A stretch of 61,753 bases of DNA from a virus (taxonomy: Duplodnaviria; Caudoviricetes). A program made the position numbers and the translations under genes. The notes under the pieces were generated by a model that worked only from the letters and a program-made list of their open reading frames with translations, made no database searches and was not told the DNA's origin. Positions 1 through 61,753 of this stretch are shown here, in pieces. Each line of letters starts with the position of its first letter. Within the stretch, counting starts at the first letter, position 1. The stretch spans positions 1-61,753 of IMG/VR virus record IMGVR_UViG_3300033233_000040; one strand, given 5' to 3'.

Positions 1-127
1 CTCGCCGACTCCTTCATGGACAAAGGGTTTCTTCATACGCTTCGCAGTCGGTCGCCCGAGTTTTTCAAGAAATTAATTTCCGCATTTATCGAGACCTACT
101 CAAGAATAATTCGCGCCTTTCGCGGTA
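1..127. repeat. 127-bp terminal direct repeat (copy 1); circular assembly overlap
   Basis: 1-127 is identical to 61627-61753 and lies inside a reading frame; 127 is a common assembler k-mer size. Confidence 0.95.
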
Positions 128-3100
128 AGTTTAAGGGGAGAACGCAGCCCGAGTGGTTCAAGAGTGTTGTTGCTATGAGGGACCGGATGGCGCGACTGAT
201 CCGCGATATTTATGTATCCGAGCATCAACAGGCGTCGGAGTCGGCGAGTAGAAAAATTATTGATGCCTTTATAGACGCCGTTAACAAGGACATGAAAGAT
301 AAGGGCGTCGTACCATCCCATGAGGGCGGCCCTGCCGAGGGTGCCTTAAAACCAGGGGAAGCGCAGTTTGCGCGCAACCCGAACCAGGTGGACATCTTTG
401 ACAAGACGCTGCCGGGCGACCTTTTTCAGGCAAAAGAAAGCGCGGGGAAAAGCAGGCCGGTAACAGAGAAGCTCGCGGTTCCCCCGGCCCCACCGGTTCC
501 CTCGGTACGCGCTGAGAGGGTTACTCGGGAACCGGCGCAGCCAAGCGGCATTACGGATTTCGGGGCGAAGATCGGGGGGGCGAAGAAAGACCTTTGGAAA
601 CAGCGCGGCCTGCAGGCAAGCGACATGACTTCCATGACGCAGCAGGAGAAGGAATCTTACGCCACCAAGGCCAATGTCTGGCCGGCAGCGGATTATGAGA
701 AAATGGTCGCGGATGGAATGCGGCCCGAGATTGCCTACCTGGTGAAGAAAGCCAAGGATGCAATTTCTCTTAAACCCGAGATTCCCCGGAACGTTCCGGT
801 TGAAGAGCGCCCCGCGAAATTAGAGCGGTACGTTACCGTGGTTTCCCGCCTTAAAGGCTACCTGGAAAGGGTGCGTTCCCTGGAGGACATCCGGGGCGTA
901 CAGCGCGAGGTTTTCCCGTCCGAGGGGTATCACTATACCAAACAGGCAAACGACGACGTATTGCTTCTTGGCGGGCGCGCGCTCTCAAAGGCGCTGCAGG
1001 CAGGACCCTATGAAATGGTCCGGGCCGAACGCTTTATCAAAGAGACCGGTTTCCCGGCCAAACAAGAAGCGTGGGAAAAACGCTTTGACATCCGCGAGAG
1101 CCCGGCAGGAATGACCATTTACGACAAGGGGCAGGAGCGCACCCTCACCGAGGGTGAATATTTTGTGACTAAAAAGGGCAGCCGATCAATTTTGTCTGAC
1201 GGGTTTAAGACCCGGGAAGAGGCTGTTGCCTGGGCGCGCGAGAAGGCCACGGTTGAGCGTGGAGAGCAGATTAACCGCCCCTTCCGGGAAAACATCACGC
1301 GGACCGGCGAAAACTACCGCAAGGGTGCCAACATTGAAGGCAAGGATTTGATGTCGCAGTTCGGGTTCCGTGGCGGCGAGTTCGGCAATTGGACCAATGC
1401 CGGGGACCGCCAGCAGAGCCTTAACGAGGCCTACGATGGCCTGAAGGACATGGCCGATGTTCTGGGCATCCCGGACAAGGCGGTCTCTCTTAACGGCGAA
1501 CTCGGCATTGCCTTTGGCGCGCGCGGATCCGGCAAGGCCCTTGCCCATTACGAACCATCCCGGATTGTCATAAATCTCACCAAGACCGGTGGTGCCGGCA
1601 GCCTGGCCCATGAGTGGGCGCACGCCATGGACGATTATTTCGGGCGCATGGCAAGCGGCGGACTCCCGGGACAATACCTTTCCGGCAGCGGCAAAATAGG
1701 CAAGGTCCGCCCGGAGATGGTCGAGGCCTATAAGAACGTGATGCGCACCATAGCCGAGAAGGCGGCCACGAAAGACGAGACCATCGCCCACGCAAAAACC
1801 CGATCCGTACAGTACGGAAAATATCTGAACAGTTGGCTTGAACCCATTCTTGAAAAAGGGACCCCCGACGAATACACGAACGACGTTATTTCAATGCTCC
1901 GGGACGAGAAGCCGAAGATGTTGAGCGGCGTTCGCGTTACCGCGGAAGAACTCTCCACGGCGCTCAAAAACCACCTGAAGGACAAATTTAATTACCGGGC
2001 CGAACCTGAACGGTTCAAGCAGATCGGCTGGAATGCTGACGCGGTTGAAAGGGCCAACGTCCAGATGGCCAAAGCAGAGGCCGGGGAGTTTTTGCTTTCC
2101 AACCAACCGACGAAGCTGATGAGGGGCTCGCTGCTGACGGACAAGGGCAAGGCCAAGGCGTATTGGTCCACCCCGCACGAACTCTTTGCCAGGGCCTTTG
2201 AAAGTTATGTTGAAGATCGCCTCAAAGACCAGGGGCAACAAAGCGATTACCTGGTCCATTCAACGGACGTGGGCGAGACCGAGGGATGGGGATCGGTTTA
2301 TCCGCATGGTGAAGAGCGGGTGGCGATCGGCAAGGCATTTGATAAGTTCTTCGAAACCCTGCAGAGTAAGGAGACGGACAAGGGCGTCGCGATGTTCTCG
2401 CGTTCGCAGGAGCCCGCCCCTACTTTCTATTCGGCCCTCGCCCGGTCCATCGAGAACGCCCCGGCGAAGCTGGACAATCTGACCGGCGCGCAGTGGAAAG
2501 GATGGCTCGACAGCAATGCGCCGAAGCTCGGCGTGAAAGCGGATGAAATCGAATGGTCGGGGATTAAGGATTATCTGGCCCTTAAAGGCAAAGAGAAGAT
2601 CACCAAGGCGGATGTTTCCAATTACCTGGCCCAGAACGGCGTGAAGGTACAGGAAGTGGAAAAAGGGCACGTTCTCAAGCAGTGGACAAAGGAGGGGAAC
2701 GCCCTAGTATCGGATGACGGCTATCGGATAACCCCGTTCGGAGAAAAGTCCGCGCAATTAATTTTCCCTGACAAATCGGACGGCGTTTATTCCAGCATGG
2801 ACGAGGCGAAAGAAGTGGCCGAAAGAACGCCGACAGGACCCAAATTTGAAAAGTATCAGCTTCCCGGAGGAGAGAATTACCGCGAGCTGTTATTGACCCT
2901 GCCCACAAAGGAAACGCGAATTCCGAATACGGTTTATCGCAAAAGCCAACCCACGAAAGAGAAGCTGATTCAACACATCGACTTTGACCCTATGATTGTG
3001 GACAGGAAGGGCAATCTTAAAAAGGGCCTGTATTACGGGCAGGACAAAAAAGGCGGGTGGAACGTATTTGAGGATACGATTGTCCGTAATGAACGCTTTC

Positions 3101-6100
3101 AAGCCGGTCATTTTGAAGAGAGCAATGTACTCGCTCATATTCGATTCAACGACCGGACCGATGCCGAAGGAAAAAGGGTGTTGTTCCTTGAAGAACTGCA
3201 GAGTGACTGGGCGCAAAAGGCGCGCAGAGAAGGATTTGTAAAGCCGAGACCAACACTGGAGAGGTTAGAAGAAATTAAGTCACGGCTGATTGAAATACAA
3301 AAGATTGCAAAACCCGCGGCGCACCGAGACAGCGGAGAATATCACGCCTTGGATGTTGAAGAAAGAATGCTACAGGATGAATTTAATGGGCGTGGCGGCG
3401 TCCCTGCTGCCCCGTTTGTTGGCGACACCAAAGCCTGGGTAGGGTTGGCGCTGAAACGCATGATCCGCTACGCCGCGGAGAACGGATACGACAAGGTGGC
3501 GTGGACCACGGGCGCGCAGCAGGTGGATCGCTACGATCTTTCAAAGCAGATCGGTTCAATAATGTGGGCGAAGCTTGCCGATGGAGATTACGGAATAAGC
3601 GCCTTTGGTTTGCGGGGCGCTGATATTCCCGGGTTACGAAACAAGAGAGTTGCCAAGAATGAACTTGCGGATACCATTGGGAAGGACCTGGCGGATAAAA
3701 TCATAAACAGTCCCGACAACAAGGGAGATTTTAAAGGTATTGATCTGAAGGTCGGCGGCGAAGGCATGAACGCTTTCTACGACAACATCGTGCCGCAGGT
3801 GGCCAATGACATTTTGAAAAAGGTTGGCGGCGGCAAAGTTTCCGATACGCCCCTTGCCTTTGAAAATGCCAACTTTGATCAGGGCGATACCGAGGACGGT
3901 GGAATGCCACCCGAAGAAACCGTTCAGACAAAGGGTTTTGAAATCACCCCTGAAATGCGCGAAAAGGTAATGAGTGAAGGACTGCCCATGTTCTCCCGCT
4001 CCCTGGATGACGCCGTTGAACAAACCATCACGGCAAAAGACAAGGTGCCGGCAACGGACGATAATGTTACCATTCCGAAGAGCGTGAATGCCGAGGCCGA
4101 GCGGCGCATGAAAGAAGCCAAGGGAATACAACTGACCCCCTTTTACCAGAAGATCGGCCCGGCGATTACGCGCATGGCGCAGGCGTTTACCCGCCATTAC
4201 CCGAACCTGGGGCCGGAAGATGCCAGGGTGGGCGATATTCTGAGGCAGTTCGAGGCGGTCCCGGAGTACGCGGAAGCCATTTCCATCAACGTGGTACATC
4301 AGATCGTCGGCAACCTGGGACCCCAGAAATACCGCCTGCTCACGCAATCCTTTATCTTGCCCGACCTGCTGAAAGACATCGATCGCGGCTTATTTGAGGG
4401 CAAAGACCAATTGCCGTTCGGGTACAAGGACCGCTCGGAAGTCCAGACCGACTTTGACAACACCATGAAGGCGGTCGCGGAAAACCCGGACGTGTCGGAC
4501 GCCATGCGGCGCAGACAGGAGTTTAACCTTGCGCTGCGCAACGACCTGGTGAAGCACAAACTCCTCCCCGACTCCATCCTCGAAGATGACGCTTATTACC
4601 ATCACCAGGTGCTTGAGAAGATCGCGGAGAAGGAGTTGTTCGGGAGGAAGACATCAGGCGGCGGGGATGCCAAGCTGCGCGCGGCAGGGTTTATGCGCGA
4701 GCGCATGGGTTCCGCGCTGGATTACAATACCGAGTACGTGGAGGCGGAGGGCGAGGTTATTTCCCAGGCGATCGAGAAGCTGGAAACCCTGCGCAAACTG
4801 CGGGAACTGCAGCCGCTTGTGGACATCTCCGAGACCTTGGCCGCGGAGGCCGCGAAAGAACACCGGTCCATGCAGATTCCCGAGGGATACACCGGATGGA
4901 GCCCAAAGCAGAACACCCCGTTCTACGCGGGGAAGACAATCCCAGAGAAGGTCATCGAGCAGCTCGTGAACCGGCAGCTCGACCAGGCGGTAACGGAGAA
5001 CGACATCCGGGAGATTTTGGCGGCCGGAAAAGCCCCGCAGTGGGTTGTTAAGGACGGCGTGGCCCGGACCCTGGATGAGATCAAGGCCCCGTCATCCGGC
5101 AACGTGCTCGACAAGGGGGCGCAGATAATTCAGAGCAAATGGAAACAGTGGGTATTGATCAACCCTGTCCGGATCCTGAAATACAACATCAACAACATGT
5201 CCGGCGACGCCGATATTACCATGGCCTACCATCCGGCCATTTTCAAAGGGTTTCCGCAGGCCGCGGCGGACATGTGGCGCTTCCTCGTGAAGAAGGAGGC
5301 CCCCACCCCCGAGATACTGCACATGATCAAGAAGGGTATTATCGGTTCGGGATGGTCCACGCAGGAAGTGCCGGACATCAGCAAACTCGCCTTTTTCCGT
5401 GCCGTGACCGGCAAAGAAGGTGGAAAACTCAAGCGGTTTACGGTTGGCGCGGTTGGCAAATACTGGGACACAAGCAAAAACCTCACGGAATGGCGCGAGA
5501 GTATTCTGCGGGTGGCCGCGTACCGGTGGTTTAAACAACAGATGGACGCCGGCAACAAGCTTTACGGCGTATCAAAGGCTGACGAAATCAACGCCATCCC
5601 GGACGGTGACGACCGCGCCGCGAAACTCTCCCGTGAGCTGCTCGGTGATTACGGTAACATCAGCGAGGCCGGTGCGTGGATGCGCACCAGGGCGTATCCC
5701 TTCTGGTCATGGGTTGAAATCAACGCACCGCGCTACCTGCGCCTGCTGAAAAACGCCAGGTTGGAAGGTAATTCCGAGGCCGCGGCAGCCGGGAAAGTGG
5801 CCGGGATACTGGCCGGGAAACTGACGAAGAAGGCAGCGTTCAAGATTGCAAAGGTCGCAATCGCCGCGAACGTGCTTTTTGTGATGATTAATCTGTGGAA
5901 CCATGTCTTTCATAAAAAGGAAGAGGAGGAGCTGGGGTCGCAGGGCACGAACCAGATGCACCTTATTCTTGGCCGGAATAAGCAAGGGCAGATTATTACG
6001 CTGCGCCTGCAGGGGGCGCTTTCCGACGTGCTAAATTGGGTTGATCTCCACGACTTTCCCCAGGACATATGGGAACTCGTGAACCATAAGAAAACAGCCA

Positions 6101-6735
6101 AGGACATGGCAAAAGAAGCGGGTATCAGTTTTCTATCGAAGCTGTACGGCGGCATCGGCCCCCAGTATAAGACGCCGGTGGAACTGATCACCAAATCAAA
6201 GGCCTACCCGAGCATCGACAAACTGAGCCCCATCCGCGACCGCATGGAATACCTGATGAGCGTTCTTTCGCTCGACAAACCTTACCGCATGTTGTCCGGA
6301 ACGCCGTCGCGCGGCAACCTGGATGAAGCGGCCAATGTGGCGCTTTACACAACCGATCCCGGGGAAGCGGCCTATTACGACATCAAGGACGCAGCGCGGA
6401 AATTTCTGGAGAAGAAGAGCGACTACGAAGTCCCGGCCGTGAGTCCGTCTGACAAATCGAACGTGCTGTATTTCTACAAGAAAGCCGTGAAGTACGGTGA
6501 CACCAAGGCGGCCCGGAAGTATTGGGACGAGTACAAGGCGCAGGGCGGCACGTATCAGACAATGAACCAGAGTGTAAAGAATATGAATCCACTGTCCGCG
6601 TTCAGCGGGCACAATTTCAAGTACCGCGCTGAATTTGTAAAGCAACTGACTCCCAGAGAGCGCGACGGACTGACGCGCGCCTCGGCGTGGTTTACGAAGT
6701 TGAAAGGTGAGACGAGGGAAGCGACGAAACCATAA
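1..6735 (+). CDS. C-terminal part of giant polyvalent (probably internal virion/ejection) protein; continues from 57754 across the junction
   Basis: ATG at 16 equals 61642, in frame with ATG 57754. Motifs: DFGAKIGGAKKD (LPD5-like); GGEFGNW...LAHEWAHAMD...YWSTPHELFARAFE (LPD1-like); LPGGENYRELLL...FLEELQSDW domain; helical LPD38-like C-terminus. Confidence 0.85.
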   Translation, partial: LADSFMDKGFLHTLRSRSPEFFKKLISAFIETYSRIIRAFRGKFKGRTQPEWFKSVVAMRDRMARLIRDIYVSEHQQASESASRKIIDAFIDAVNKDMKDKGVVPSHEGGPAEGALKPGEAQFARNPNQVDIFDKTLPGDLFQAKESAGKSRPVTEKLAVPPAPPVPSVRAERVTREPAQPSGITDFGAKIGGAKKDLWKQRGLQASDMTSMTQQEKESYATKANVWPAADYEKMVADGMRPEIAYLVKKAKDAISLKPEIPRNVPVEERPAKLERYVTVVSRLKGYLERVRSLEDIRGVQREVFPSEGYHYTKQANDDVLLLGGRALSKALQAGPYEMVRAERFIKETGFPAKQEAWEKRFDIRESPAGMTIYDKGQERTLTEGEYFVTKKGSRSILSDGFKTREEAVAWAREKATVERGEQINRPFRENITRTGENYRKGANIEGKDLMSQFGFRGGEFGNWTNAGDRQQSLNEAYDGLKDMADVLGIPDKAVSLNGELGIAFGARGSGKALAHYEPSRIVINLTKTGGAGSLAHEWAHAMDDYFGRMASGGLPGQYLSGSGKIGKVRPEMVEAYKNVMRTIAEKAATKDETIAHAKTRSVQYGKYLNSWLEPILEKGTPDEYTNDVISMLRDEKPKMLSGVRVTAEELSTALKNHLKDKFNYRAEPERFKQIGWNADAVERANVQMAKAEAGEFLLSNQPTKLMRGSLLTDKGKAKAYWSTPHELFARAFESYVEDRLKDQGQQSDYLVHSTDVGETEGWGSVYPHGEERVAIGKAFDKFFETLQSKETDKGVAMFSRSQEPAPTFYSALARSIENAPAKLDNLTGAQWKGWLDSNAPKLGVKADEIEWSGIKDYLALKGKEKITKADVSNYLAQNGVKVQEVEKGHVLKQWTKEGNALVSDDGYRITPFGEKSAQLIFPDKSDGVYSSMDEAKEVAERTPTGPKFEKYQLPGGENYRELLLTLPTKETRIPNTVYRKSQPTKEKLIQHIDFDPMIVDRKGNLKKGLYYGQDKKGGWNVFEDTIVRNERFQAGHFEESNVLAHIRFNDRTDAEGKRVLFLEELQSDWAQKARREGFVKPRPTLERLEEIKSRLIEIQKIAKPAAHRDSGEYHALDVEERMLQDEFNGRGGVPAAPFVGDTKAWVGLALKRMIRYAAENGYDKVAWTTGAQQVDRYDLSKQIGSIMWAKLADGDYGISAFGLRGADIPGLRNKRVAKNELADTIGKDLADKIINSPDNKGDFKGIDLKVGGEGMNAFYDNIVPQVANDILKKVGGGKVSDTPLAFENANFDQGDTEDGGMPPEETVQTKGFEITPEMREKVMSEGLPMFSRSLDDAVEQTITAKDKVPATDDNVTIPKSVNAEAERRMKEAKGIQLTPFYQKIGPAITRMAQAFTRHYPNLGPEDARVGDILRQFEAVPEYAEAISINVVHQIVGNLGPQKYRLLTQSFILPDLLKDIDRGLFEGKDQLPFGYKDRSEVQTDFDNTMKAVAENPDVSDAMRRRQEFNLALRNDLVKHKLLPDSILEDDAYYHHQVLEKIAEKELFGRKTSGGGDAKLRAAGFMRERMGSALDYNTEYVEAEGEVISQAIEKLETLRKLRELQPLVDISETLAAEAAKEHRSMQIPEGYTGWSPKQNTPFYAGKTIPEKVIEQLVNRQLDQAVTENDIREILAAGKAPQWVVKDGVARTLDEIKAPSSGNVLDKGAQIIQSKWKQWVLINPVRILKYNINNMSGDADITMAYHPAIFKGFPQAAADMWRFLVKKEAPTPEILHMIKKGIIGSGWSTQEVPDISKLAFFRAVTGKEGGKLKRFTVGAVGKYWDTSKNLTEWRESILRVAAYRWFKQQMDAGNKLYGVSKADEINAIPDGDDRAAKLSRELLGDYGNISEAGAWMRTRAYPFWSWVEINAPRYLRLLKNARLEGNSEAAAAGKVAGILAGKLTKKAAFKIAKVAIAANVLFVMINLWNHVFHKKEEEELGSQGTNQMHLILGRNKQGQIITLRLQGALSDVLNWVDLHDFPQDIWELVNHKKTAKDMAKEAGISFLSKLYGGIGPQYKTPVELITKSKAYPSIDKLSPIRDRMEYLMSVLSLDKPYRMLSGTPSRGNLDEAANVALYTTDPGEAAYYDIKDAARKFLEKKSDYEVPAVSPSDKSNVLYFYKKAVKYGDTKAARKYWDEYKAQGGTYQTMNQSVKNMNPLSAFSGHNFKYRAEFVKQLTPRERDGLTRASAWFTKLKGETREATKP

Positions 6736-6792
6736 GCCCCCCAAACCCCCCAAAGGGGGGCTTGAGGAAGGGGAAATTAAGAAGGAGAAAAG

Positions 6793-8812: not shown

Positions 8813-8824
8813 TTGAACCTCCTT

Positions 8825-16153: not shown

Positions 16154-16347
16154 TTGGCATCCTTTATCCTTATGGCGCGGTTGCTCGCCCAGATTTGCTT
16201 GCGGATACAGTAGCGCAGCTCCATGAGGCAGGCGGGATTCCCCCGCGGGAGAGCCCGGCATGCACACTCGTTTGAGGGCGGGAAGGCCGCAAGGATCTGC
16301 GCCACCGTCATAATCTCCACGGGCGGGATTATTCCGCTTTCAGGCAT
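16150..16347 (-). CDS. Small hypothetical protein
   Basis: MPESGIIPP...; fills the gap between GroES and the next gene. Confidence 0.4.
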   Translation of the reverse strand: MPESGIIPPVEIMTVAQILAAFPPSNECACRALPRGNPACLMELRYCIRKQIWASNRAIRIKDAK

Positions 16348-17080: not shown

Positions 17081-17115
17081 CTTGGGATGAGCCCGCCCGG
17101 CATAATCGGAACGGA

Positions 17116-17304
17116 TTACTCTTTCGAGCACGGGGCCTCCACGGGCATGGGGATTTTGTTCGCGGCCTTGCATTCGACGCGGGAATGCACAACCATTTGT
17201 GAGAGCGGGAGCCAGAAGGGCCTCGTGACGCCGACCGTGAGCCAGTGCTGAAAACATTCCTCCGAGGTAACGACGCCGCGGAGTTTGCAGTTAAAGATGA
17301 TCAT
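17116..17304 (-). CDS. Small hypothetical protein
   Basis: ATGA overlap with the DUF5131 gene. Confidence 0.45.
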   Translation of the reverse strand: MIIFNCKLRGVVTSEECFQHWLTVGVTRPFWLPLSQMVVHSRVECKAANKIPMPVEAPCSKE

Positions 17305-18011: not shown

Positions 18012-18032
18012 GAATGCTTTTCTCCTCCAAAT

Positions 18033-18069
18033 AAAAAAGGGCAACAAGGTGTAAGGCACCTCATTGCCC
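18033..18069 (-). terminator. Hairpin plus U-tract (family shared with 28349-28387)
   Basis: Minus strand GGGCAATG-A-GGTG-CCTTA-CACC-TT-GTTGCCC-TTTTTT. Confidence 0.55.
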
Positions 18070-18445
18070 GTGTCTGCTTTGCTCCCCGGCCAACGCTGTC
18101 ACATTGGACGAGGGGCGGCTTTGTTATCGAACCGTAATCAGCGTTTCTTTGAGCGGCCCCCCTTGGGTATTGGAACCTCGCCTACGACGCGGATCCGTCT
18201 GGAGATCGTTTTCCTGGCCGTCTTGATGTAGGCATCCATCTCGGCGCGCGCGGCGCTTCCCTTGGGTGCCAATCGGTTGATGTTGACCAGGACATTGCCT
18301 ACGACGCAGCGGCGGGGTTTTTTCACATGATCCTCGTTGGAAAAGGGGGTGGAACTATTTTCAGGGGCCACAGCAGGGGCCACAACTTCAGGGAAGAACA
18401 GGGTAAAGCAGGGTTTTCCGGGATTTCTCAAAACCGTGAAAAAAT

Positions 18446-28505: not shown

Positions 28506-29429
28506 TTAAGCTGCAATCTTTTCAATCTGGAGTCTGAACGCGCATTTAGCATCCCTTTTTCCCGTCAGTCGGAAATTTCCAACCAAGAGGTTGAGGCAAC
28601 CCTTCTCGTCCGCCGTCGCCTTCGCCCTTTCCCGGATCAAGTCGTACTCCTTGTCGCATTCGAGGGCGGTTTCTTTTTTATCCAGGTACGTTTCCAGTCG
28701 CTTGGCGAATATGGGGTCGTCGCTGATTTTAAGTTCGACCCCGAAATTAATTTCAGGGCAACACGTGAGTTTAAAGGGGCATTCTCGGCATTTTTCCAGA
28801 TCTCCTATTTTGTCGGGCAAGGTTTTTGCCGCGACATGTTTGTTGATTTCTTCGGCTGTTTTAAGACAAGCCTCGGCAAGTTCGTAATCCAGTGACACCT
28901 CAACCTGTTTGAGTTCGCCCGTGCTTTTGTTTTTCAGAATAAAAAGAGCAACGTCGATGTCTTTTGACAGCATATACAGCATGATCTGCGCCATGTACGC
29001 CCTGGTCCATGGCTTCTTCTTGAAGTCCTCGAAAGAGTTCACGCTTGTGAAAATATGCGGGGACATGCTTTTGATTTCGACGGGAACCGCTTTCCCGTCC
29101 ACAACAAGAACGCCGTCCAGGTGTCCCGTGATTTGTTGCGCGGGCAATTCGAAGGCGCTTTGTTGTTCGATGATTTGTATCCCGGCCGCCGCAAGATCCC
29201 GCAGAACAATTTGTTCCTGATTGTTGCCCTCGTCAAAGACGAGCTGAAGCCTCGCGTCCGGCAATTCCTTGTCCTGCCAGTTCGTGCGCTCGTAAACACC
29301 ACGGCGCAAGCATCCTTCCAGAGAGGAAACGAAATACCCCAAACCGGAGGCGCGGTTGGTCTTGCAGGGATAGCGCTTGATTTGGCCGGCCTTAAAGGCC
29401 AGGATGGCGTCAACGAGGTTGATAATCAT
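28506..29429 (-). CDS. Cas4-like PD-(D/E)XK exonuclease
   Basis: CLRR, ITGHLDG..V.....VEIKS, QIMLYM, C-terminal CRECPFKLTC. Confidence 0.8.
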   Translation of the reverse strand: MIINLVDAILAFKAGQIKRYPCKTNRASGLGYFVSSLEGCLRRGVYERTNWQDKELPDARLQLVFDEGNNQEQIVLRDLAAAGIQIIEQQSAFELPAQQITGHLDGVLVVDGKAVPVEIKSMSPHIFTSVNSFEDFKKKPWTRAYMAQIMLYMLSKDIDVALFILKNKSTGELKQVEVSLDYELAEACLKTAEEINKHVAAKTLPDKIGDLEKCRECPFKLTCCPEINFGVELKISDDPIFAKRLETYLDKKETALECDKEYDLIRERAKATADEKGCLNLLVGNFRLTGKRDAKCAFRLQIEKIAA

Positions 29430-30484
29430 TTTGCCTCCTTCATGGTTTTGACGATATATTCGCAAAGAGACTGCGTTTCTGTCTCGTTGCATTCCACGAG
29501 ATCTTTTCCGAGCGTGTCGCGCAAAAAATCGTCGGTGTGCTTGTTGAAGGTTTTGATGTTTCCGTTTTTCTCGGCCCGGGCCTTGTATTCGGAGAACTTA
29601 GTTTTCCATGGCGCGGGCTCGCCTTTCCCGTTCTCCGCGGCGGCTTTGTTGCGCTTGGAAGTCATCTCGTCGTGGTCTTTTTTTACTTTCTCGTAGATGA
29701 TCGGCACCTGCTTTTCGGAAAGCTGCTTTACAGAGTCTTTCCCGGGAATTTTCTTTCCATCGCCGTTTGTCCATGCCGTGTACGCGATGAGGGCTTGTTT
29801 CGCGGCCATTTCAACGCCGCCGCACATATCGAGAATCATATCCATGATGCCCTTGCGCTTTTCGGTCGTCTCGGGCGTATCGCTCCCGGCCTTGTCGTGT
29901 TCAACCTTGGTGCATTTTAATGCGGTGATTTTGCCTTTGGTGATTTCCGCGATCTCCTCCCACGTGAAAGAAAGACCGAGAAGGGATTTGAGGCCTCGAT
30001 TGAAGAAGTTTGTAAGCGCCTTCTTCTTCACGTCTGTCATGTCGATTTCAGACAGAGGCAAGAATGCGCCATGGGCTTTTCCGAAAAATGGGTCACGACT
30101 TGAGCCCGTACCAATCTCGGGGACAAACCGGCCCATATATGTGACGTTTCCAGAGCAGTGGAAAACAATGAACGCTCCTTTTTCGTCTTCGCCGGTTTCG
30201 CGCTCGAACGTCGGAGAGCCGTAAGAGACGCCGAATGTCTGGGCAATCTTACTGGCTCCCGCCCACTCCAAGTAGGGCTTTCCATCCTGGTCGATCCAAT
30301 CCGCAGCGGACGTGACGGTTAGCGCGAGTTCGCGGATCCGGCTGGCGAATTTGACGTACTTCTCTGCCTGGGCCAGCATGGCGTCAAAGTTTTGCCCAGA
30401 AATCACAGCTCCGCCTATGGTCTGAATGGGCTCGGCTACAGGAACGATGTCCGCGCTCTTTTCTTTTCCTTCTCCGTTTGCCAT
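29426..30484 (-). CDS. Probable single-strand annealing/recombination protein
   Basis: KPYLEWAGASKIA, DVKKKALTN; translationally coupled to the exonuclease. Confidence 0.55.
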   Translation of the reverse strand: MANGEGKEKSADIVPVAEPIQTIGGAVISGQNFDAMLAQAEKYVKFASRIRELALTVTSAADWIDQDGKPYLEWAGASKIAQTFGVSYGSPTFERETGEDEKGAFIVFHCSGNVTYMGRFVPEIGTGSSRDPFFGKAHGAFLPLSEIDMTDVKKKALTNFFNRGLKSLLGLSFTWEEIAEITKGKITALKCTKVEHDKAGSDTPETTEKRKGIMDMILDMCGGVEMAAKQALIAYTAWTNGDGKKIPGKDSVKQLSEKQVPIIYEKVKKDHDEMTSKRNKAAAENGKGEPAPWKTKFSEYKARAEKNGNIKTFNKHTDDFLRDTLGKDLVECNETETQSLCEYIVKTMKEAK

Positions 30485-35593: not shown

Positions 35594-35839
35594 ATGAACA
35601 CATCGGCGAAATGGATCAAGCTGTTCTGCCGCGAGAAGGTGGGCGCAAAAAACCTGACCTGCCGGAACTATCTCGGGGACCTGCGCATCGACGTTCCCGG
35701 CACCTCGCGCCATTACTGCAAGAACTGCAACCACCTGATTGAATTCGAAGTCACCCCTTCGGGCGAAGTCTCCTTTGAAGTCCTGCCCAAAACATACCGT
35801 ACCGAGGCCCTGGACTCGGTCGCCATGGTGAGGAAATAA
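35594..35839 (+). CDS. Zinc-ribbon protein (Mu Com-like)
   Basis: C...CRNYLG...HYCKNC; TAATG overlap with portal. Confidence 0.5.
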   Translation: MNTSAKWIKLFCREKVGAKNLTCRNYLGDLRIDVPGTSRHYCKNCNHLIEFEVTPSGEVSFEVLPKTYRTEALDSVAMVRK

Positions 35840-38016
35840 TGGACCAACTCATTCAGACCGGCGCGAAGAACCCCGCTGACAGGCCGACCATGACCGAGCG
35901 GGTGCAGATGGTTGTCCAGAACTGGACCAGGGTAAAGCAGTATCACCAGCTCAACATCGACAATTCCATTGAGAACTGGCGGTACTACTTTGCGAAGAAC
36001 GCGGCGCAGGGGCTTGGCCAGTACCCCAAGAACGTGGCTGACATGCTTCTGGCCTCTTCGCGGCAGCTCCACCAGTACAACATCATCATGCCCACCGTGG
36101 ACAGCCTCGCGGGCGCGCTCCTGCAGATGAAGTTTGACCCTGAATTCATTCCCGTGAACGACCTTGCGACGAGCCTTACCGAAGCGGTTGAGAAGGCCTA
36201 CCACTCTGACAAAGAGATCATGGATTGGCCGGGAACCTGGCTTGATGTCGTCACCGGGGGCATGATCCACGAGGGTGTATGCAAGATGGTAATTTCGGAT
36301 AAATTTGACCCGCTCGGGAACATCGGCTTTGAAACCAGCCTGCCGGGCATGACCTTTTCCGATCCGACGTGGAAGAGTTGGAAATCCAGCGATTGTAAGA
36401 AGGTGTGGCACGAGGCCTGGTTGGACGCGGCGCAGCTCGTTGTCCAGTATCCCGAGATGAAAGCGGAGTTGGACTTTTACCTGAAACAACTCAAACTGAA
36501 CGGCATGGAGTATGGGCCGTTTTCCGGGGTTATTCCCTACCAGACCGGCACGGGCGTCTGGGGCAGCGCCTTCCGGATCATCGAGGAGTACGAGGTTGTC
36601 AGCGAAACGCGCAAGGTGGATTACGTGCTGACCCCGGACGGGTCCGTCATTATTCCCGCGGATGTGCCGGACATGGAAAAGATTGCATGGCTGAATCAGA
36701 ACGTACCGGATTGGCAGCCCGACCTTGTTCACGAAAAACCCATCAAGGAGGAGATCTGCTACATGCGCGCCGCGGCCCCGGAGATCAGCGGTCTCGATCT
36801 TCTGCAGGACAAGCCGACCGAAGTGCAGATTCAGGCGACGCCCTGGAAGTTTTATTCCGCGTCCAGGTTCAACGGGGAGCCCCATTCCGTCGTGGACTCA
36901 ATCAAGGACGCGCAGCAGAACATCAACTCGTGGGAATCCCTGATCACCTATAAGATCCAGGTCGAGGGCGGCGGGGGCAGCCAGTTCGCGGACGCCTCGA
37001 AGTTTCAGAGCGACAGCGTGTACAACGACTATGTGGCAAACAGAAATAATCCCAAAAAGGTTTTCCGCCTCAAACCCGGAGTGGATCCGGGCACCGTAAC
37101 CGCCCCTACTGTTAAAAGCCAATTTCCGCAGGAGGCATACAGTCATTTAAACCATATCCTGCAGGTCATGCTTCCGATGATCTCAAAGGTCACGCCCTCG
37201 TCGGTGGGCCGTTCGGAGGCCAACCAGCAGCAGATGAGTGGACGGCTGTATGAGATGATGAAGATTCAGTCCGACGCGCAGGCGTACACGCTCCATTACG
37301 GCCTGCGCATGTTCATGAACGACATCGCGGAGTCCTACCTCCTCCAGGTCCCCAAGACCTACAGCAACGAAGCGCAGCCCCGCTCGTTTCCGTTAAACGG
37401 CGGGAAAGAACGCATCACGCTCAACGAGCCCGTTGATCTTCCGGATGGGTCACAGGGTATCAAAAACGACGCGAGCCAGCTTGAGGTGCTGCGTCATAAG
37501 GTCATCATCAGTGAAAAACCGGATTCGCCGGCCACGCAGATGGACAACATCGACACCTTTACCAAGCTGATCACAGCCTTTTCTAGCAACCCGGACAAAT
37601 TTGTCACCATCAACAAGCTCCAGGGAAAAATCATCGAGAACCTGCCCCAACTCTCCCAGGAGGACAAGGAAGAACTGGAGGCGATCAACGCCAAAGAAAT
37701 CGAACTTGAAATAGTCACTCTTGAAGCGAGACTTATTAACGCGCAGATAGCACTTAAAACCGCCCAAGCCCAACTGCAGGCCATCGAAAACCCGCCCCCA
37801 CCCCCGCCCCCACCCCCTTCGAACGATCCCAAGATCCTCGCCGAACAGGCGGCAGCGGCCACAGGCGGTAAAGTGTCCATCTCGTTTGCGGCCGGGGGCA
37901 AACCCGGCGAGCAAGGAGCGCCTCAAAGTTTACCCATGCCCGCGGCACCGCCACAAGCGGCCCAGGCGCAACCCATAATGCCTAACGCGCCACAAGCGCA
38001 AGGAGCAGTCACATGA
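35839..38016 (+). CDS. Portal protein (P22-like)
   Basis: 725 aa; YNIIMPTVDSLAG, SVVDSIKDAQQNIN; coiled-coil and Pro/Gln-rich tail; position before scaffold. Confidence 0.8.
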   Translation: MDQLIQTGAKNPADRPTMTERVQMVVQNWTRVKQYHQLNIDNSIENWRYYFAKNAAQGLGQYPKNVADMLLASSRQLHQYNIIMPTVDSLAGALLQMKFDPEFIPVNDLATSLTEAVEKAYHSDKEIMDWPGTWLDVVTGGMIHEGVCKMVISDKFDPLGNIGFETSLPGMTFSDPTWKSWKSSDCKKVWHEAWLDAAQLVVQYPEMKAELDFYLKQLKLNGMEYGPFSGVIPYQTGTGVWGSAFRIIEEYEVVSETRKVDYVLTPDGSVIIPADVPDMEKIAWLNQNVPDWQPDLVHEKPIKEEICYMRAAAPEISGLDLLQDKPTEVQIQATPWKFYSASRFNGEPHSVVDSIKDAQQNINSWESLITYKIQVEGGGGSQFADASKFQSDSVYNDYVANRNNPKKVFRLKPGVDPGTVTAPTVKSQFPQEAYSHLNHILQVMLPMISKVTPSSVGRSEANQQQMSGRLYEMMKIQSDAQAYTLHYGLRMFMNDIAESYLLQVPKTYSNEAQPRSFPLNGGKERITLNEPVDLPDGSQGIKNDASQLEVLRHKVIISEKPDSPATQMDNIDTFTKLITAFSSNPDKFVTINKLQGKIIENLPQLSQEDKEELEAINAKEIELEIVTLEARLINAQIALKTAQAQLQAIENPPPPPPPPPSNDPKILAEQAAAATGGKVSISFAAGGKPGEQGAPQSLPMPAAPPQAAQAQPIMPNAPQAQGAVT

Positions 38017-56500: not shown

Positions 56501-57754
56501 ATGCCAAACGTCCCTATGCCTCAGCCCAATGATGTCGCCTCCCTGTACTCAAACGCCGGCAAGGCCGCGGGTGCGGCGGTACAGGACATCGGCACAGCGG
56601 TTGATACCTATAACGAAGTGCAAAAGTGGAGGGCCGACGAGAAGAAACGCGTTGAGTTGCGCCAAGCTCTGCTCACTGAGTACAAATTTAAGCCCGAAGA
56701 CATCCCGGAGAAGACCTCTTTTGACGAGTTGGCGCGGATTTCCCATAATCTACAACAGCTCGACGGCGCTCACGATAACGCCACGAAGAACGGCGCGACC
56801 GGGATTCCCGAGAAGCAGCAGGCGCGGATTTACGCCCTTGCCGACAAGGACCACTTTTACAAGGGACTCGGTACCTTGGAAGAGGCGGCGCAGAAGGCGG
56901 CGAAGGATAGGGCGACGCAGCAGGCACAGACCGGGAGCGCGGAACAACTCAAAGGACTTTCCGAGGGGTTGAACAAGGATATGCCCCCGGCCCAACCTAT
57001 TTCCATGGGAGCGGACAAATCCTTGTTCGCGGGTGCCGGATCCGGCGATCAAACCAGGATGCCGCAGCTCGTGGGGCAGGACGCCCGGAACGCGCCCGGC
57101 GGGAAGATCGGTAACGAGGTGCCAAGAGAGACGGCGCAAAAGGCCATGATGCAGGCGATCGACAACCCCGAACAGGTCGGCCCGCAGACGCAGGAGACCT
57201 TTCTTGGCCAGTACCGGATAAAAGACGAGATTCCCCAACCCAAACCCAAGCCCCGCAGCGGGACGGATGACAGCATCAAGGACAACCAGGTTGTTTCGTT
57301 TTACAACCAGGCCAGGCGCGACAAGGCGGGCATTGAAAAGACGATGAAGCAGACGAAGCTCGATATTGACAGCGCACAGGGCGAACTCGACCAGATCAAA
57401 TCGGGAACGCATGAAAAGATCGCGCAGACAGACACCGCCGCCATTGCCAAAATGACAGCCAAAGTCAACGACCTGAAGGGGGAACTTGAGGGATACCAGA
57501 ACGACTGGGGAACCTATGACTCCGAGTTTCAGAGTTGGGGCGAAGAGGCCAGGCGGCGCAATTTGCCGATCGGCAAACCCGTCGTGACCAAGAAAAAAGA
57601 GGCAGCAGCGGCAGCGGGTCTTGTTAAGCCGAAGTCCGGCGCAACACTCAGCCCTCAAGAAACGGGCGCGATTTCCTGGCTCAACGACCCGAAGAACGCG
57701 CAGGACCCCCGGTATGGTTCCATCCTCGATAAACTCAAGGGAAAGGTCGAATAA
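56501..57754 (+). CDS. Ejection/internal virion protein
   Basis: SD AGGAGG; coiled-coil; TAATG coupling to the giant gene. Confidence 0.6.
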   Translation: MPNVPMPQPNDVASLYSNAGKAAGAAVQDIGTAVDTYNEVQKWRADEKKRVELRQALLTEYKFKPEDIPEKTSFDELARISHNLQQLDGAHDNATKNGATGIPEKQQARIYALADKDHFYKGLGTLEEAAQKAAKDRATQQAQTGSAEQLKGLSEGLNKDMPPAQPISMGADKSLFAGAGSGDQTRMPQLVGQDARNAPGGKIGNEVPRETAQKAMMQAIDNPEQVGPQTQETFLGQYRIKDEIPQPKPKPRSGTDDSIKDNQVVSFYNQARRDKAGIEKTMKQTKLDIDSAQGELDQIKSGTHEKIAQTDTAAIAKMTAKVNDLKGELEGYQNDWGTYDSEFQSWGEEARRRNLPIGKPVVTKKKEAAAAAGLVKPKSGATLSPQETGAISWLNDPKNAQDPRYGSILDKLKGKVE

Positions 57755-60700
57755 TGACGTTCGATCCGGATGCGTTTCTGGCGGAGCCCGCGCCCGCGAA
57801 ATCTTTTGACCCCGACGCTTTTTTGTCCGGTGCGCCGGACAAGCCCAATCTCGCGGATGTTAAAATACGGTCCTGGTCCGAGGTTTCGCCGCCCGTGGGA
57901 AACCCCAAGCCCCTTACCGAAACCCCGCAGAGTACCGCGGTTGCCGGAACAGCGGCGTTTGATCCTGATCCTGACGCTTTTCTCGCGGACCGCCCGGAAG
58001 TAAAACCCTTCCCCGAAACCACCATTGCCGGTACCACCGAGAAGCCTTTAAAGGATTTCGAGAAGCGCATGCAGGATCCGAACGCTTTTATCACCAATCC
58101 TGACGGCACCATCAGCACGCATAAAATGGCGTGGGGACAGGCGGGAGGCAAGTTTATCGCTTTCCCGACCATTGTTCCGGTGGACGGAGAGCTTAAACAA
58201 TTGGGAGTCAACGACGCGGCGGACTTTGCGATCAAGAATAACGAGTACAAGAGTTTCGACACGGCCAAAGACGCGGAAACCTATGCCGCGGGCTCATGGA
58301 AAGAGGGGACGCCGTTTGCGAAGAGTCCGCAGCCGCAGGAAATTTTCCCCGCCAATGCGCCGGTTGAAACCGTCAAGGCTGAACCGCTGCCGAGCCCGGA
58401 AGAGATACAGACAAAGACGCCCCTTGAGATCGGAACGAAGTTTCTTAAGAACACCCTCTATGCCGGGATCGCCGGCGCGGGGGCCGCGGTTCCCGTGATT
58501 GCAAGCGCCTTCTCCTGGCCCGTGCGGATGGTAAATGGCGTGCAGGCCGTGGTTGATAATCTGCCCGGCTCGATATCCACCTGGCAGAACCTCAAAGAAA
58601 CGGCAGGTGCGGGTTTTGAGGGAACGGATGCGGCGCGCATGAAGGGTTTTGATGTGAACGACTTTGACTGGGCCGCGCAAAGGCTCGGCGAAATGATCCA
58701 AAACCCCAAGGACGCTGACGAGAAGTTCATTCAGCTCGGCATGAACACAGTGGTCAACCGCGTGGCAGAGGCCTACATTGCCCTGCAGACGGCGGGGCTC
58801 GCTTATAACGTGGGAAAGGCCGTTGTCACTCCCCTGCTCGGGAAAGCGACCGAGACGCTCGATAAGATTCTGACGGTCAAATTCTCGCCCGAGGACATGG
58901 CCGCGGTGAAACGGTCCATCCAGACGCTCGGCACCAAGGACGGCGAAGCGAACTTCCAGGGATTGAACGAGAAGCAGCGCACCCTGTTCAACGCGATTCA
59001 GCAGGACGCGCAGAAGCGCGACATTCTGACCTCCGGGAGGATGACGCGCGGCCAATATAAGCAGTACAAGCCCGGGGAACCGGTTGTTCCGGCAAAGCCC
59101 GGGGTATCCGGTGCCATTTCCGGCGAAGTGGCGAACCCGCCCGCTGCCGCCCCGGCTGAAACACCCCCTCCCGCCGCAGCGCCGGGCAAAACAGGCGAAG
59201 AGATCTACCGTTCCCTGGTCCCGGAGATCCCTGGGGAGCCCGTAAAGGCCTCTACAGGGCCGGATGTATCCCAATTGGGTACGGACGCAGCCATAAAGGC
59301 CGAGCCCCCCCTGGAACCCCCCTCAAATGACTCCAAAACGGGTTTAAATGAACCCGCCGCGATCGCCAAACCGGCAGAAAATGCCGCTTTGGCCAATCCG
59401 GACGTACCACCACAGGCCTTTCAGCGCGGAGTTACCTATAAAACCGGTAACGTGGAGACCCTTGGCGAGGACATGGACCACATGACCGGGGTTCCGGGCA
59501 AGAATATCAGCGTTGCGCGCGTGAATGCGGCCGCCAAGGGGAATCAAAAGCTCGTTCTCTACTTTGACATCGACAATTTCAAGGCCGTGAACGAAACATA
59601 CGGCCACGACGAGGGTAATAATGTTCTCGCGGCGCTCGGCGGGGCGCTCCAGGATTATTTCGGGCATGGAGAAATGGGCCGCGTGGGCGGCGAGGAGTTT
59701 TACGCGGCGATCGACAACTCCCCTGAAAATGTGCAGATGGCGCACGAGTTCTTAAAAGCCGTACCGGAGTTGGTAACGGTTCACGACCACCCGGTCACGA
59801 TCAGCGGCGGACTTGGAACGGGCGTGATCCCGACGCAAAAAGGCGGCGAGCGCCTCTATGCGGACAAGCTCCTGAACATGGCGAAAGAGGCCGGAAAGAA
59901 CCAGATTGTATTTGACAATCATGGAAAAATTGAGTACCTTAAAGGTAAGGAAGGACTGGCGAAACCTTATGTCGACCAATACGACCTACGAAGCCTGGAG
60001 GAAACGGCGGGACGAGTACTTGCTCGACCCGACCTTTCGGGACCCCAACGGACAGCCCTTGAAGGAGCCGTACAAGCCGTCCGTGAAAAAAGGTCTGGTC
60101 AAATACCGGGGCAAGGTGGTCAACGGGCCAATCTATCCGCCCCAGGTGGCGTCGCATCCGAAACCGTTCAGCCCGCAAGCGCAGATAAAGTAGTTCCGGC
60201 CAGGAAGCCCCCCGAAGCACCCCCAAAACAAACCGTTCTCGCGCAACCCAAACCCCCGGCTACACCCGCGCCCGCGTCGGCAATCCCCGCCCCCGTTGTT
60301 CCGCAGGACCTCTCCCGCCTTTCAAAAGAAGAGCTGCTCGCGCTCAACAAGCAGGTTGACCAGCACGTCAGCAAGGCCCCGGACAGCGCGCCCGCAGTGG
60401 CAAAGAGCGGCAAGCGCATCGTCTCCGCCCTGGAAACCCTCGGGTATGACCAGCGCGGAAAGCTCCTGCCCGTGGAGCGCGCGGTATCCAAGGCCGCCGC
60501 GGCGGAATATCACCGGCAGGCCGTGACCTGGCGCGAAAAGGCGCGGCAGATGTACCGGGTATTCGGCGCGGATCCGGCGAGCGTCCTGGTTTATAATCAC
60601 GGGCTCATTGAGAACGTGCCGGCGTCGCAGCGCACGGCCTTTGTGAAGAAGGTGTTCAACGTCTCAAAAGATGAGACCATGGACAAGGACTTCAGCATCC

Positions 60701-61753
60701 CGAGCCGCCTGGGTGTGGACAAAATTGCCCAGGATGAGGGGGTGGATTCTGAAAAGATGGTGAACGACGCAGTCTCATTTTATGAGACTGAGCGGAAAGC
60801 GCCTCCGAGCAGGGCCGGGGTGGCCCGCAAGATGGTCGAGGAGCAGAAGCAGGAAGAGGCGTACAATAAATACCTGGAGGAAAAGCAGGCGCAGCGGGAA
60901 ACGCCGGTCTCTTTTTCCCGGTGGCAGGAAGAGAATGGTTTGACAAACGGGCAGGATAAAGGTAGATTAGAGGGTGGAGGAGATCCCAATGCTGCCAGCA
61001 AACCTGAAAGAGTCGAACCTGCCGGAAAAGGAGTGGGTGAGACAATACCACGAACACCAGGACAGTCTCCGGGCTCCGATAAGTTGGGGTTGGTCCTGGA
61101 CCACAGAGGACTACAAGAACCTGGAGCGCAGGAGGCCCTTCAAACTTTCGAGGATGCACTATCTGTCGAATTACGTGGGCCTGTTCCAGCGAATCAGACT
61201 CAGATTGTCTCTCCTTCTGGCGTCAATGAAGAACCCATTCGCGCCCTTCAGGAAGTTTTCCCGCACTGGTCTATCCACGTAGTCAGAGTTTCCGAACCAC
61301 TCATTAAGCGCGTCCCCTTTGATGGCGTTGCGATCAAAGGGCAAATTTTCCTAAACGAATCATCCAAAGACCCAACATTCTGGGTTGTCGCCCATGAAGT
61401 CGGGCACGTCATAAAAAGCAAACACCCGGGACTCTATGCAAAAGCAAAGGCGGATTTTTTAAGCAATCTGTCAGATGACGGAAGGATGGAAATCAAACGG
61501 CGTGCGGTTGCGGAAAGCGTGGGGAAAAGATCCGTTAAAATGACGGATGCCCAAATCAACGGGGAGTTTGATAAGCTTTCTCCGTTCCGAAAAGAAATCG
61601 GAGAGGACGAGATTTTCTGCGATTCCCTCGCCGACTCCTTCATGGACAAAGGGTTTCTTCATACGCTTCGCAGTCGGTCGCCCGAGTTTTTCAAGAAATT
61701 AATTTCCGCATTTATCGAGACCTACTCAAGAATAATTCGCGCCTTTCGCGGTA
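57754..61753 (+). CDS. N-terminal part of the giant polyvalent protein (total ~3,535 aa), with GGDEF and zincin domains
   Basis: Open frame from ATG 57754 (MTFDPDAFLAE...) to the window end, absent from the ORF track; GGEEF at 59686-59700; HEVGH at 61393-61407. Confidence 0.88.
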   Translation, partial: MTFDPDAFLAEPAPAKSFDPDAFLSGAPDKPNLADVKIRSWSEVSPPVGNPKPLTETPQSTAVAGTAAFDPDPDAFLADRPEVKPFPETTIAGTTEKPLKDFEKRMQDPNAFITNPDGTISTHKMAWGQAGGKFIAFPTIVPVDGELKQLGVNDAADFAIKNNEYKSFDTAKDAETYAAGSWKEGTPFAKSPQPQEIFPANAPVETVKAEPLPSPEEIQTKTPLEIGTKFLKNTLYAGIAGAGAAVPVIASAFSWPVRMVNGVQAVVDNLPGSISTWQNLKETAGAGFEGTDAARMKGFDVNDFDWAAQRLGEMIQNPKDADEKFIQLGMNTVVNRVAEAYIALQTAGLAYNVGKAVVTPLLGKATETLDKILTVKFSPEDMAAVKRSIQTLGTKDGEANFQGLNEKQRTLFNAIQQDAQKRDILTSGRMTRGQYKQYKPGEPVVPAKPGVSGAISGEVANPPAAAPAETPPPAAAPGKTGEEIYRSLVPEIPGEPVKASTGPDVSQLGTDAAIKAEPPLEPPSNDSKTGLNEPAAIAKPAENAALANPDVPPQAFQRGVTYKTGNVETLGEDMDHMTGVPGKNISVARVNAAAKGNQKLVLYFDIDNFKAVNETYGHDEGNNVLAALGGALQDYFGHGEMGRVGGEEFYAAIDNSPENVQMAHEFLKAVPELVTVHDHPVTISGGLGTGVIPTQKGGERLYADKLLNMAKEAGKNQIVFDNHGKIEYLKGKEGLAKPYVDQYDLRSLEETAGRVLARPDLSGPQRTALEGAVQAVREKRSGQIPGQGGQRANLSAPGGVASETVQPASADKVVPARKPPEAPPKQTVLAQPKPPATPAPASAIPAPVVPQDLSRLSKEELLALNKQVDQHVSKAPDSAPAVAKSGKRIVSALETLGYDQRGKLLPVERAVSKAAAAEYHRQAVTWREKARQMYRVFGADPASVLVYNHGLIENVPASQRTAFVKKVFNVSKDETMDKDFSIPSRLGVDKIAQDEGVDSEKMVNDAVSFYETERKAPPSRAGVARKMVEEQKQEEAYNKYLEEKQAQRETPVSFSRWQEENGLTNGQDKGRLEGGGDPNAASKPERVEPAGKGVGETIPRTPGQSPGSDKLGLVLDHRGLQEPGAQEALQTFEDALSVELRGPVPANQTQIVSPSGVNEEPIRALQEVFPHWSIHVVRVSEPLIKRVPFDGVAIKGQIFLNESSKDPTFWVVAHEVGHVIKSKHPGLYAKAKADFLSNLSDDGRMEIKRRAVAESVGKRSVKMTDAQINGEFDKLSPFRKEIGEDEIFCDSLADSFMDKGFLHTLRSRSPEFFKKLISAFIETYSRIIRAFRG
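61627..61753. repeat. 127-bp terminal direct repeat (copy 2)
   Basis: Identical to 1-127. Confidence 0.95.

Follow-up and report, generated by a model that had tools for sequence, protein, structure and literature searches.

Does a tailed bacteriophage carry, built into one of its virion proteins, an enzyme that makes a bacterial second messenger, and could that enzyme enter the host together with the phage DNA? The locus that raises this question lies in the IMG/VR virus record IMGVR_UViG_3300033233_000040 (Caudoviricetes), which was analysed over its whole length of 61,753 nucleotides (hereafter, the window) and in which a plus-strand frame opening at position 57754 encodes a GGDEF nucleotide-cyclase domain. 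A preliminary description, made from the letters of the window, had placed this domain in a giant and probably injected virion protein, and had suggested that a feedback-insensitive cyclic-dinucleotide synthase may be delivered before any phage gene is expressed. The idea of injection and interference is not new, being essentially that of Iyer, Burroughs, Anand, de Souza and Aravind (2017, J Bacteriol, PMC5512222), the accessible part of whose text describes GGDEF domains in polyvalent proteins and proposes interference with nucleotide signalling. In the present study, the domain, the 3,535-residue protein that holds it and the subfamily of giant phage proteins to which it belongs were examined, and one substitution in the active site was found to bear on the product that the enzyme would make.

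RESULTS

A complete GGDEF domain without an inhibitory site

The peptide quoted in the preliminary description is the exact translation of positions 59476-59910 of the plus strand, and the Pfam PF00990 search recommended there was positive: the profile matched residues 574-717 of the protein (59473..59904, plus strand) over its full length (profile positions 3-161 of 161) at 68.5 bits (E = 7.6e-19; gathering cut-off 23.8). NCBIfam TIGR00254 matched at 56.9 bits against a cut-off of 37.4, and 46 distinct GGDEF sequences of the PDB matched at E ≤ 1e-3. Structure prediction, likewise recommended, recovered the GGDEF/nucleotidyl-cyclase palm fold. The AlphaFold2 (AF2) model of the domain together with its C-terminal extension, built on a 28-sequence alignment, had a mean predicted local distance difference test score (pLDDT) of 93.4 and a predicted template modelling score (pTM) of 0.86. 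Foldseek matched the model in the PDB to DgcZ, PleD, WspR, an Idiomarina phytochrome cyclase and others (entries including 3tvk, 9g86 and 3i5c; E ~1e-9, probability 1.00), essentially all of the Foldseek matches listed being GGDEF-domain proteins and most of them diguanylate cyclases. That this is a real GGDEF domain is practically certain.

The metal-binding DID (D605-I-D607) and the GGEEF motif (residues 645-649; 59686..59700, plus strand) are both intact, as had been stated, and alignment also confirmed the absence of an RxxD inhibitory site (I-site), which was looked for as RxxD five residues upstream of GG[DE]EF; FGHG occupies that register (59659..59670, plus strand). The Asn that contacts guanine is present as N613, which we take to be the equivalent of N335 in PleD, the metal-binding Asp presumably corresponding to D327 of the same enzyme. 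The module is the catalytic domain alone, with neither a sensor domain nor an N-terminal stalk helix nor RxxD, and Pro/Ala-rich linkers lie on either side of it. It shares with the canonical diguanylate cyclases PleD, WspR and DgcZ the fold, GGEEF, the metal-binding Asp, the Asn base contact, and the Lys and Arg/Lys phosphate contacts. Those enzymes use an N-terminal sensor or stalk, whereas here the predicted dimerising element is C-terminal, RxxD is absent, and an Asn replaces the Asp that reads guanine. The domain is predicted to be an active cyclase, and we consider this prediction rather probable.

A giant polyvalent protein

The frame from 57754 was indeed missing from the track of open reading frames (ORFs), as had been remarked. 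It continues past the 3' end of the window and is absent from a list of closed frames because the circular genome was cut inside the gene. Bases 1-127 of the window are identical to 61627-61753, and this 127-bp direct terminal repeat of a complete IMG/VR virus record reflects overlapping ends in the assembly of a circular or permuted genome, which was opened within the giant gene; the unique genome length after subtraction of the overlap is 61,626 bp. The 5' part of the gene (57754..61753, plus strand) encodes residues 1-1333 plus one base, and the 3' part (1..6735, plus strand) encodes residues 1292-3535 plus the stop codon, the frame being continuous across the repeat. The roughly 1,333 residues visible at the end of the window are thus not the whole protein, whose real size is 3,535 residues and which the protein database holds uninterrupted (P0003, from a 61,767-b contig). 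The ATG of the giant gene overlaps the TAA stop of the preceding gene (TAATG), to which it is translationally coupled; that gene (56501..57754, plus strand; probable start ATG 56501 after AGGAGG) encodes a charged, helical protein of 417 residues without a family match.

The N-terminal region of the giant protein has no family match and contains, within its first 75 residues, three FDPD(PD)AFL repeats (at residues 3, 18 and 69; 57760..57978, plus strand), which might serve as a short linear motif that directs the protein to the capsid or portal. For residues 1-560 the atlas produced weak leads only, among them one of 0.80 to a P22 gp16 cluster. Downstream of the GGDEF domain lie its conserved C-terminal extension (residues 718-780; 59905..60093, plus strand) and a first HExxH motif (residues 1214-1218; 61393..61407, plus strand) in a domain spanning approximately residues 1122-1395. 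An LPD5-like or CLCA_X-like region (residues 1675-1840; 1150..1647, plus strand) holds the second HExxH motif (residues 1828-1832; 1609-1623, plus strand); NCBIfam CLCA_X matched this region at 151 bits, below its cut-off of 260, and PHROG 616 matched it too. An LPD1 domain (residues 2005-2081; 2140..2370, plus strand) matched Pfam at 86-89 bits against a cut-off of 27, and the C-terminal 1,436 residues (2425..6732, plus strand) are LPD38-like, with an atlas score of 0.97 (195/256 features) to LPD38-bearing viral proteins. Furthermore, the last ~600 residues (approximately 2916-3523; 4876-6732 of the window) matched at 494 bits a 5,858-residue giant protein encoded at 661-18237 of a 98-kb IMG/VR contig (L054). 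This best-conserved part shared with the L054 protein contains the second of the two hydrophobic segments found in the giant protein (residues 235-253 and 3236-3254) and may be a module for packaging or membrane insertion. PDB sequence searches with residues 720-1333 and 1292-3535 gave no meaningful match. An N4-like virion RNA polymerase, the first thought raised by the size of the ORF, was rejected, since no RNA polymerase family or fold signal was found and the LPD domains point elsewhere.

A GGDEF domain, an LPD1 domain (86 bits), a weak LPD5/CLCA_X-like region, two HExxH motifs and an LPD38-like tail are therefore combined in one polypeptide. Its gene lies downstream of the portal gene on the same strand and is coupled to the preceding ORF, the intervening ORFs being without assigned function. 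The protein is very probably a phage polyvalent protein. By their published description, as far as accessible, the GGDEF-bearing polyvalent proteins of Iyer et al. (2017), such as that of an Acetonema longum prophage (WP_004096050.1), are alike in combining GGDEF with a zincin-like HExxH and an LPD domain beside virion genes. Unlike in those proteins, no SNF2 helicase, DNA methylase or ART domain was found here in Pfam, NCBIfam and PDB sequence searches, and the accessible part of that text makes no mention of a C-terminal extension of the GGDEF domain or of an Asn base-reader.

In the domain around HExxH motif 1, the H, E and H and a downstream Glu (E167 of the model) were invariant in four related sequences. 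The AF2 model of this domain had a pLDDT of 71 and gave no Foldseek match at E ≤ 1e-3, metalloproteases appearing among the weak rows only (best VIA Z, 4.3). Zincin-like peptidases have been proposed to process polyvalent proteins (Iyer et al., 2017, in the part accessible), and release of the GGDEF module through self-processing by the HExxH domains, with a putative zincin fold, is plausible but unsupported.

Evidence for probable packaging in the virion

The preliminary description had set the giant protein at the end of a late-gene block, which was borne out. It had also called the gene the last of four ejection-type genes, and this was not confirmed: the upstream ORFs (934, 899, 130, 916 and 417 aa) gave a single fn3 match in Pfam and PHROG, and neither the N-terminus of the giant protein nor the upstream ORFs matched known ejection proteins of the T7 gp14-16 or P22 gp7/gp20/gp16 type in these databases.

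The link to virions comes from elsewhere in the protein. Residues ~1671-2109, which include the LPD5-like region, share 40.7% identity (E = 6e-35) with the giant protein of 933W-type Shiga toxin (Stx) podophages, and a 4,203-residue protein of the Bacillus podophage Dartukuta matches as well. The 933W protein (ST933Wp72, 2,806 aa, 'LPD5 domain-containing') and phi24B gp47 resemble the present protein in having LPD5, LPD1 and an LPD38-type tail and in being encoded by the last large late gene. They differ from it in their size of ~2,800 residues and in having no GGDEF domain, the N-terminal ~1,670 residues here, with GGDEF and HExxH motif 1, being without counterpart. According to the accessible part of a preprint (10.64898/2026.04.10.717836), proteomics found phi24B gp47 (2,811 aa; LPD5, LPD1, LPD38) to be abundant in purified virions, and the protein, invisible in cryo-EM maps, was proposed to be an encapsidated ejection protein. 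We take phi24B gp47 to be the counterpart of the 933W giant protein, the sequences of the two not having been compared. Phage polyvalent genes, moreover, lie next to virion genes, and injection of their products with the DNA has been proposed (Iyer et al., 2017, in the part accessible). By analogy with these proteins, the giant protein is likely to be packaged and ejected, and we hold this with slightly more confidence than the activity of its domain.

Other phages provide precedents for such a route. The giant enzyme DarB of phage P1 is packaged in the capsid and injected. The N4 virion RNA polymerase, as far as its description was accessible, is likewise a very large capsid-packaged enzyme that acts before phage gene expression. 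Unlike in a case of common descent, no sequence relationship of the present protein to DarB or the N4 polymerase was found, and the enzymatic activities differ.

A subfamily of GGDEF giants with conserved catalytic residues

In an exhaustive HMMER search of 1.84 billion cluster representatives with residues 134-1333 as the query, 97,741 matched at E ≤ 1e-3, GGDEF being a very large family, and only nine did so at E ≤ 1e-30. Among the 150 matches listed, 34 alignments, the query counted, reach beyond residue 750. Two of them (P0129 and P0131) are ordinary cellular proteins and were left out, and the remaining 32 clusters constitute the subfamily, in which a C-terminal extension of ~65 residues is common to all members. 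Proteins of at least 1,500 residues, and up to 4,425, make up 28 of the 32. All ten members that were looked up lie on contigs of 12-63 kb assembled from metagenomes or genomes. At one locus (L007), the GGDEF giant gene lies between a 'virion structural protein' match and a holin. Pfam domains in 17 GGDEF giants comprised GGDEF (17), LPD38 (6), LPD1 (4), SLT (3) and LPD5 (2), with ART-PolyVal, MuF_C, InPase and Zeta_toxin in one each; the SLT lytic transglycosylase and MuF_C are virion-associated themes.

The 17 full-length giants had a mean column identity of 17%, amid which D575, D605, D607, K610, N613, H618, G645, G646, E647 and E648 were invariant, as were S684, G686, K711, G714, N716, Y728, G731 and Y739. 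Invariance of the complete catalytic set at such divergence points to selection on enzyme activity. GGEE-x occurs in 31 of the 32 members. RxxD at the I-site register occurs in none of them, whereas an ordinary cellular match in the same set has RETD there.

The C-terminal extension as a predicted homodimer interface

In the AF2 model, residues 717-730 form a beta-hairpin that packs against the GGDEF core, and residues 738-756 and 763-780 form two helices; Y728, G731 and Y739, which are among the residues invariant in the giants, lie in this extension. No PDB cyclase aligns over it, the Foldseek alignments covering ~160-178 of 228 columns. Homodimer prediction with residues 560-795 gave interaction scores from predicted aligned errors (ipSAE) of 0.48, 0.48 and 0.45, against 0.00 in each of three controls, and the mark applied to ipSAE was reached by 20/30 proteins solved as homodimers and 1/23 single chains, counts that apply only roughly here, since an alignment of our own was supplied for the prediction. 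The dimer runs agreed in at least 92% of contacts, with a partner pLDDT of at least 83, and all confident contacts fell within residues 741-779, that is, in the conserved extension only. The extension is thus predicted to be a homodimer interface; the model supports, and does not show, that the helical hairpin joins two copies. Since catalysis by GGDEF enzymes requires two domains loaded with substrate, a dimerising element built in on the C-terminal side would make this sensor-less cyclase constitutively competent.

Asn622 at the base-reader position

Alignment to PDB cyclases, together with the codon itself (AAT; 59617..59619, plus strand), places Asn622 where canonical diguanylate cyclases carry the Asp that reads the Watson-Crick face of guanine. 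We presume this residue to be the equivalent of D344 in PleD. In the subfamily, the base-reader residue is Asp in 29 and Asn in 3 of the 32 members, the present copy included. Six GGDEF proteins of 471-771 residues outside the subfamily (P0020, P0023, P0028, P0048, P0072 and P0110) also have Asn at this position, mostly with GGEEF.

The same position is 348 in GacA, where, in the accessible part of Hallberg et al. (2019; PMC6456294), Asp confers GTP specificity, and Ser or Thr, only in combination with GGDE[F/Y], gives the promiscuous Hypr enzymes that make cyclic GMP-AMP (cGAMP), cyclic di-AMP (c-di-AMP) and cyclic di-GMP (c-di-GMP). The present domain is like the Hypr GGDEF enzymes GacA and Bd0367 in deviating at the base-reader position, on which the selection of GTP or ATP depends. 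It does not belong to the Hypr type, because it has Asn with GGEEF instead of Ser/Thr with GGDE[F/Y]. No data on Asn at this position were found in the literature covered, to which the Hypr paper of Hallberg et al. (2016) did not belong, and Asn may mark a naturally occurring, so far uncharacterised specificity variant among GGDEF enzymes. The preliminary description had spoken of a cyclic-dinucleotide synthase; as regards a complete and I-site-free synthase domain this stands, and as regards c-di-GMP as its product it is not assured, since the guanine-reading Asp is Asn622.

The domain may accordingly be read as an active cyclase whose main product is 3'3'-cGAMP, c-di-AMP or a mixture, which could serve as a decoy or premature trigger of host cyclic-nucleotide immunity or as a signal to another phage module. 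The residue concerned is the very one at which Ser or Thr yields promiscuous enzymes, and the 'Goldilocks' spacing described for these enzymes should hold with GGEEF, the side chain of Asn being as long as that of Asp (our extension of the accessible part of PMC6456294). Asn recurs naturally, being found in two other subfamily members and, in a set biased towards the query, in 9 of the 210 motif-matched GGDEF domains among the 150 matches listed, with Asp in the other 201. The carboxamide of Asn can, moreover, pair with N1/N6 of adenine. We nevertheless judge such a product unlikely: the domain is not of the Hypr type, 29 of its 31 relatives keep the Asp so that the subfamily as a whole looks GTP-specific, and a single D-to-N change could merely weaken the enzyme.

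The same D-to-N change, at a residue that contacts the substrate, would also suit a domain that has no catalytic activity, or no relevance, in this copy and acts as a structural or dimerising spacer, or as a nucleoside triphosphate (NTP)-binding module, within an ejection protein that builds a conduit. A conduit role has been proposed for phi24B gp47, which has no GGDEF domain (10.64898/2026.04.10.717836, in the part accessible), and the hydrophobic segments at residues 235-253 and 3236-3254 fit a trans-envelope conduit. Invariance of the metal- and phosphate-binding residues and of GGEEF in 17 diverged giants is, however, unexpected for a spacer, and without an I-site the domain has no known binding site for c-di-GMP; an inert domain therefore seems to us more doubtful still than an altered product.

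Genome context and lifestyle of the phage

The portal protein gene (35839..38016, plus strand; phrog_156, E = 1.5e-26) marks the start of the late or structural block and is followed on its 3' side by an uninterrupted series of plus-strand ORFs, mostly without a family match, of which the giant gene is the last. Nearly all of the structural ORFs, namely those of 456, 448, 358, 242, 828, 360, 934, 899, 916 and 417 residues, lacked a Pfam or PHROG match. A tblastn search of 50,697 phage records at 1e-5 found nothing that matched the portal protein, and the lineage of the phage is therefore regarded as new and unplaced; to judge from its sequence, the structural region (35839-57754, plus strand) looks like that of a deeply novel phage lineage. 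In addition, a tblastn search with 17 ORFs of the window against 80 IMG/VR loci gave nothing at 1e-4.

The minus strand encodes a large terminase (8825-10948), an integrase (18547-19746; phrog_1, E = 1.2e-25), a Cas4-like exonuclease (28506-29492), a DnaB-like helicase, a replication initiator, a radical-SAM protein and a glycosyltransferase. Because an integrase is encoded, the phage is held to be temperate, and the GGDEF domain could act from a prophage. It might then work in the cell that expresses it, whether a lysogen or a late-infected cell, raising c-di-GMP for biofilm formation or sessility or excluding rival phages through surface receptors. Stand-alone GGDEF genes do occur outside virion modules in phages, for example as a small gene at the end of Acetobacter phiAX1 and in several BFVD entries. 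Here, by contrast, the domain is embedded in a 3,535-residue late-block protein coupled to structural genes, and 28 of the 32 subfamily clusters have at least 1,500 residues. A giant protein would be a costly route to a 230-residue enzyme in a lysogen, and late structural operons are normally silent in lysogens. Action in the expressing cell is thus improbable in our view, to much the same degree as a product other than c-di-GMP.

The position of the large terminase, distant from the portal gene and on the opposite strand, is an unusual arrangement. The radical-SAM protein, identified by PHROG matches, adjoins the two-domain glycosyltransferase (12598-15559, minus strand), which has GT2 and DXD-type Gly_transf_sug matches and a 25-residue local match to the TcdA/TcdB glycosyltransferase profile; the pair may be a DNA- or surface-modification module. 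PADLOC found 0 defence families and a tRNA search found no tRNA genes in the window.

A scan of genome contigs listed at least 600 stretches, which were ordinary cellular GGDEF genes. Among these matches, no locus contained an ORF of at least 1,200 residues with a relationship beyond GGDEF, and there was no host or prophage lead. In a search of sequencing runs, positions 60202-60300 were identical over 99 bases to a 180-base contig in a sediment-metagenome run of a different study, a weak hint of the same or a very close phage elsewhere. The remaining partial matches represent the conserved DIDxFK motif of unrelated GGDEF genes, and no RNA dataset was among the matches listed.

DISCUSSION

Considering these results, we put forward a sequence of events to which, taken as a whole, we give about even chances. 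The 3,535-residue polyvalent protein would be made late in infection, packaged in the capsid and ejected into the next host with the DNA. The conserved extension would pair two GGDEF copies and yield a constitutive, product-insensitive enzyme, which in the cytoplasm might be freed by the protein's own HExxH peptidase-like domains. Ahead of any phage gene expression, the enzyme would condense two purine NTPs to a cyclic dinucleotide, of which c-di-GMP is the likeliest, relaxed specificity being possible through the Asn that stands for the guanine-reading Asp. The second-messenger state of the host may thereby be driven towards a sessile, non-motile programme, or its nucleotide-based signalling may be disturbed.

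Several points weigh against this sequence. The phage is uncultured and known from a single assembly of a sediment metagenome, and the presence of the protein in virions and its entry into cells are putative. None of the other structural ORFs of the window matches anything near the related giant genes, so that no shared context or synteny can be argued. The similarity to the 933W-type protein spans ~440 of the 3,535 residues and excludes the GGDEF region. A folded enzyme would have to thread a narrow tail channel and then refold, and a temperate phage could use the domain from its prophage. As to catalysis, the position of R446 in PleD is Lys here, both K and R being found in the subfamily, and the predicted dimer shows no contact between the GGDEF cores. 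The Asp through which an active diguanylate cyclase contacts guanine is replaced by Asn622, and this copy may bind GTP poorly or may reflect a recent single-base change from GAT to AAT. Full read support for codon 622 comes solely from contig-level data of the probable source sample, and from one assembly a sequencing error or a minority variant at this codon is conceivable.

If the enzyme used ATP through Asn622, the consequences would be more far-reaching. A dimeric, feedback-insensitive cyclase preloaded in the capsid could release a flood of cGAMP- or c-di-AMP-type messengers within seconds of DNA entry, and this might jam, desensitise or prematurely discharge immunity of the kind of cyclic-oligonucleotide-based anti-phage signalling systems (CBASS), or reprogramme the host, before phage transcription. 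We regard this version as a long shot. If true, it would be the first case of a second-messenger synthase delivered by a virion, and Asn would mark a natural specificity class among GGDEF enzymes. To our knowledge, phage counter-defence via nucleotide signals has so far mainly meant degrading or sequestering the messengers of the host. A synthase that arrives in finished form, together with the genome, would reverse this strategy and act when the infection is most vulnerable.

Delivery of a phage GGDEF domain was proposed in 2017, and among the papers listed in full-text searches on phage GGDEF virion or ejection proteins and on phage-encoded diguanylate cyclases, no experimental test of it was seen. 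The present study newly delineates a subfamily marked by a conserved hairpin that probably dimerises, by lack of the I-site in every member and by conservation of the catalytic residues across divergent giants, and adds the Asn variant in this copy and the link to a virion protein class confirmed by proteomics. The locus and its ~30 relatives thus provide a compact test object, namely a ~230-residue fragment comprising the GGDEF domain and the predicted dimerising hairpin, with Asp and Asn both occurring naturally at the residue that sets specificity. At stake are whether the 'cargo' enzymes of polyvalent proteins are active and whether an Asn base-reader sets apart GGDEF enzymes with a new class of product.

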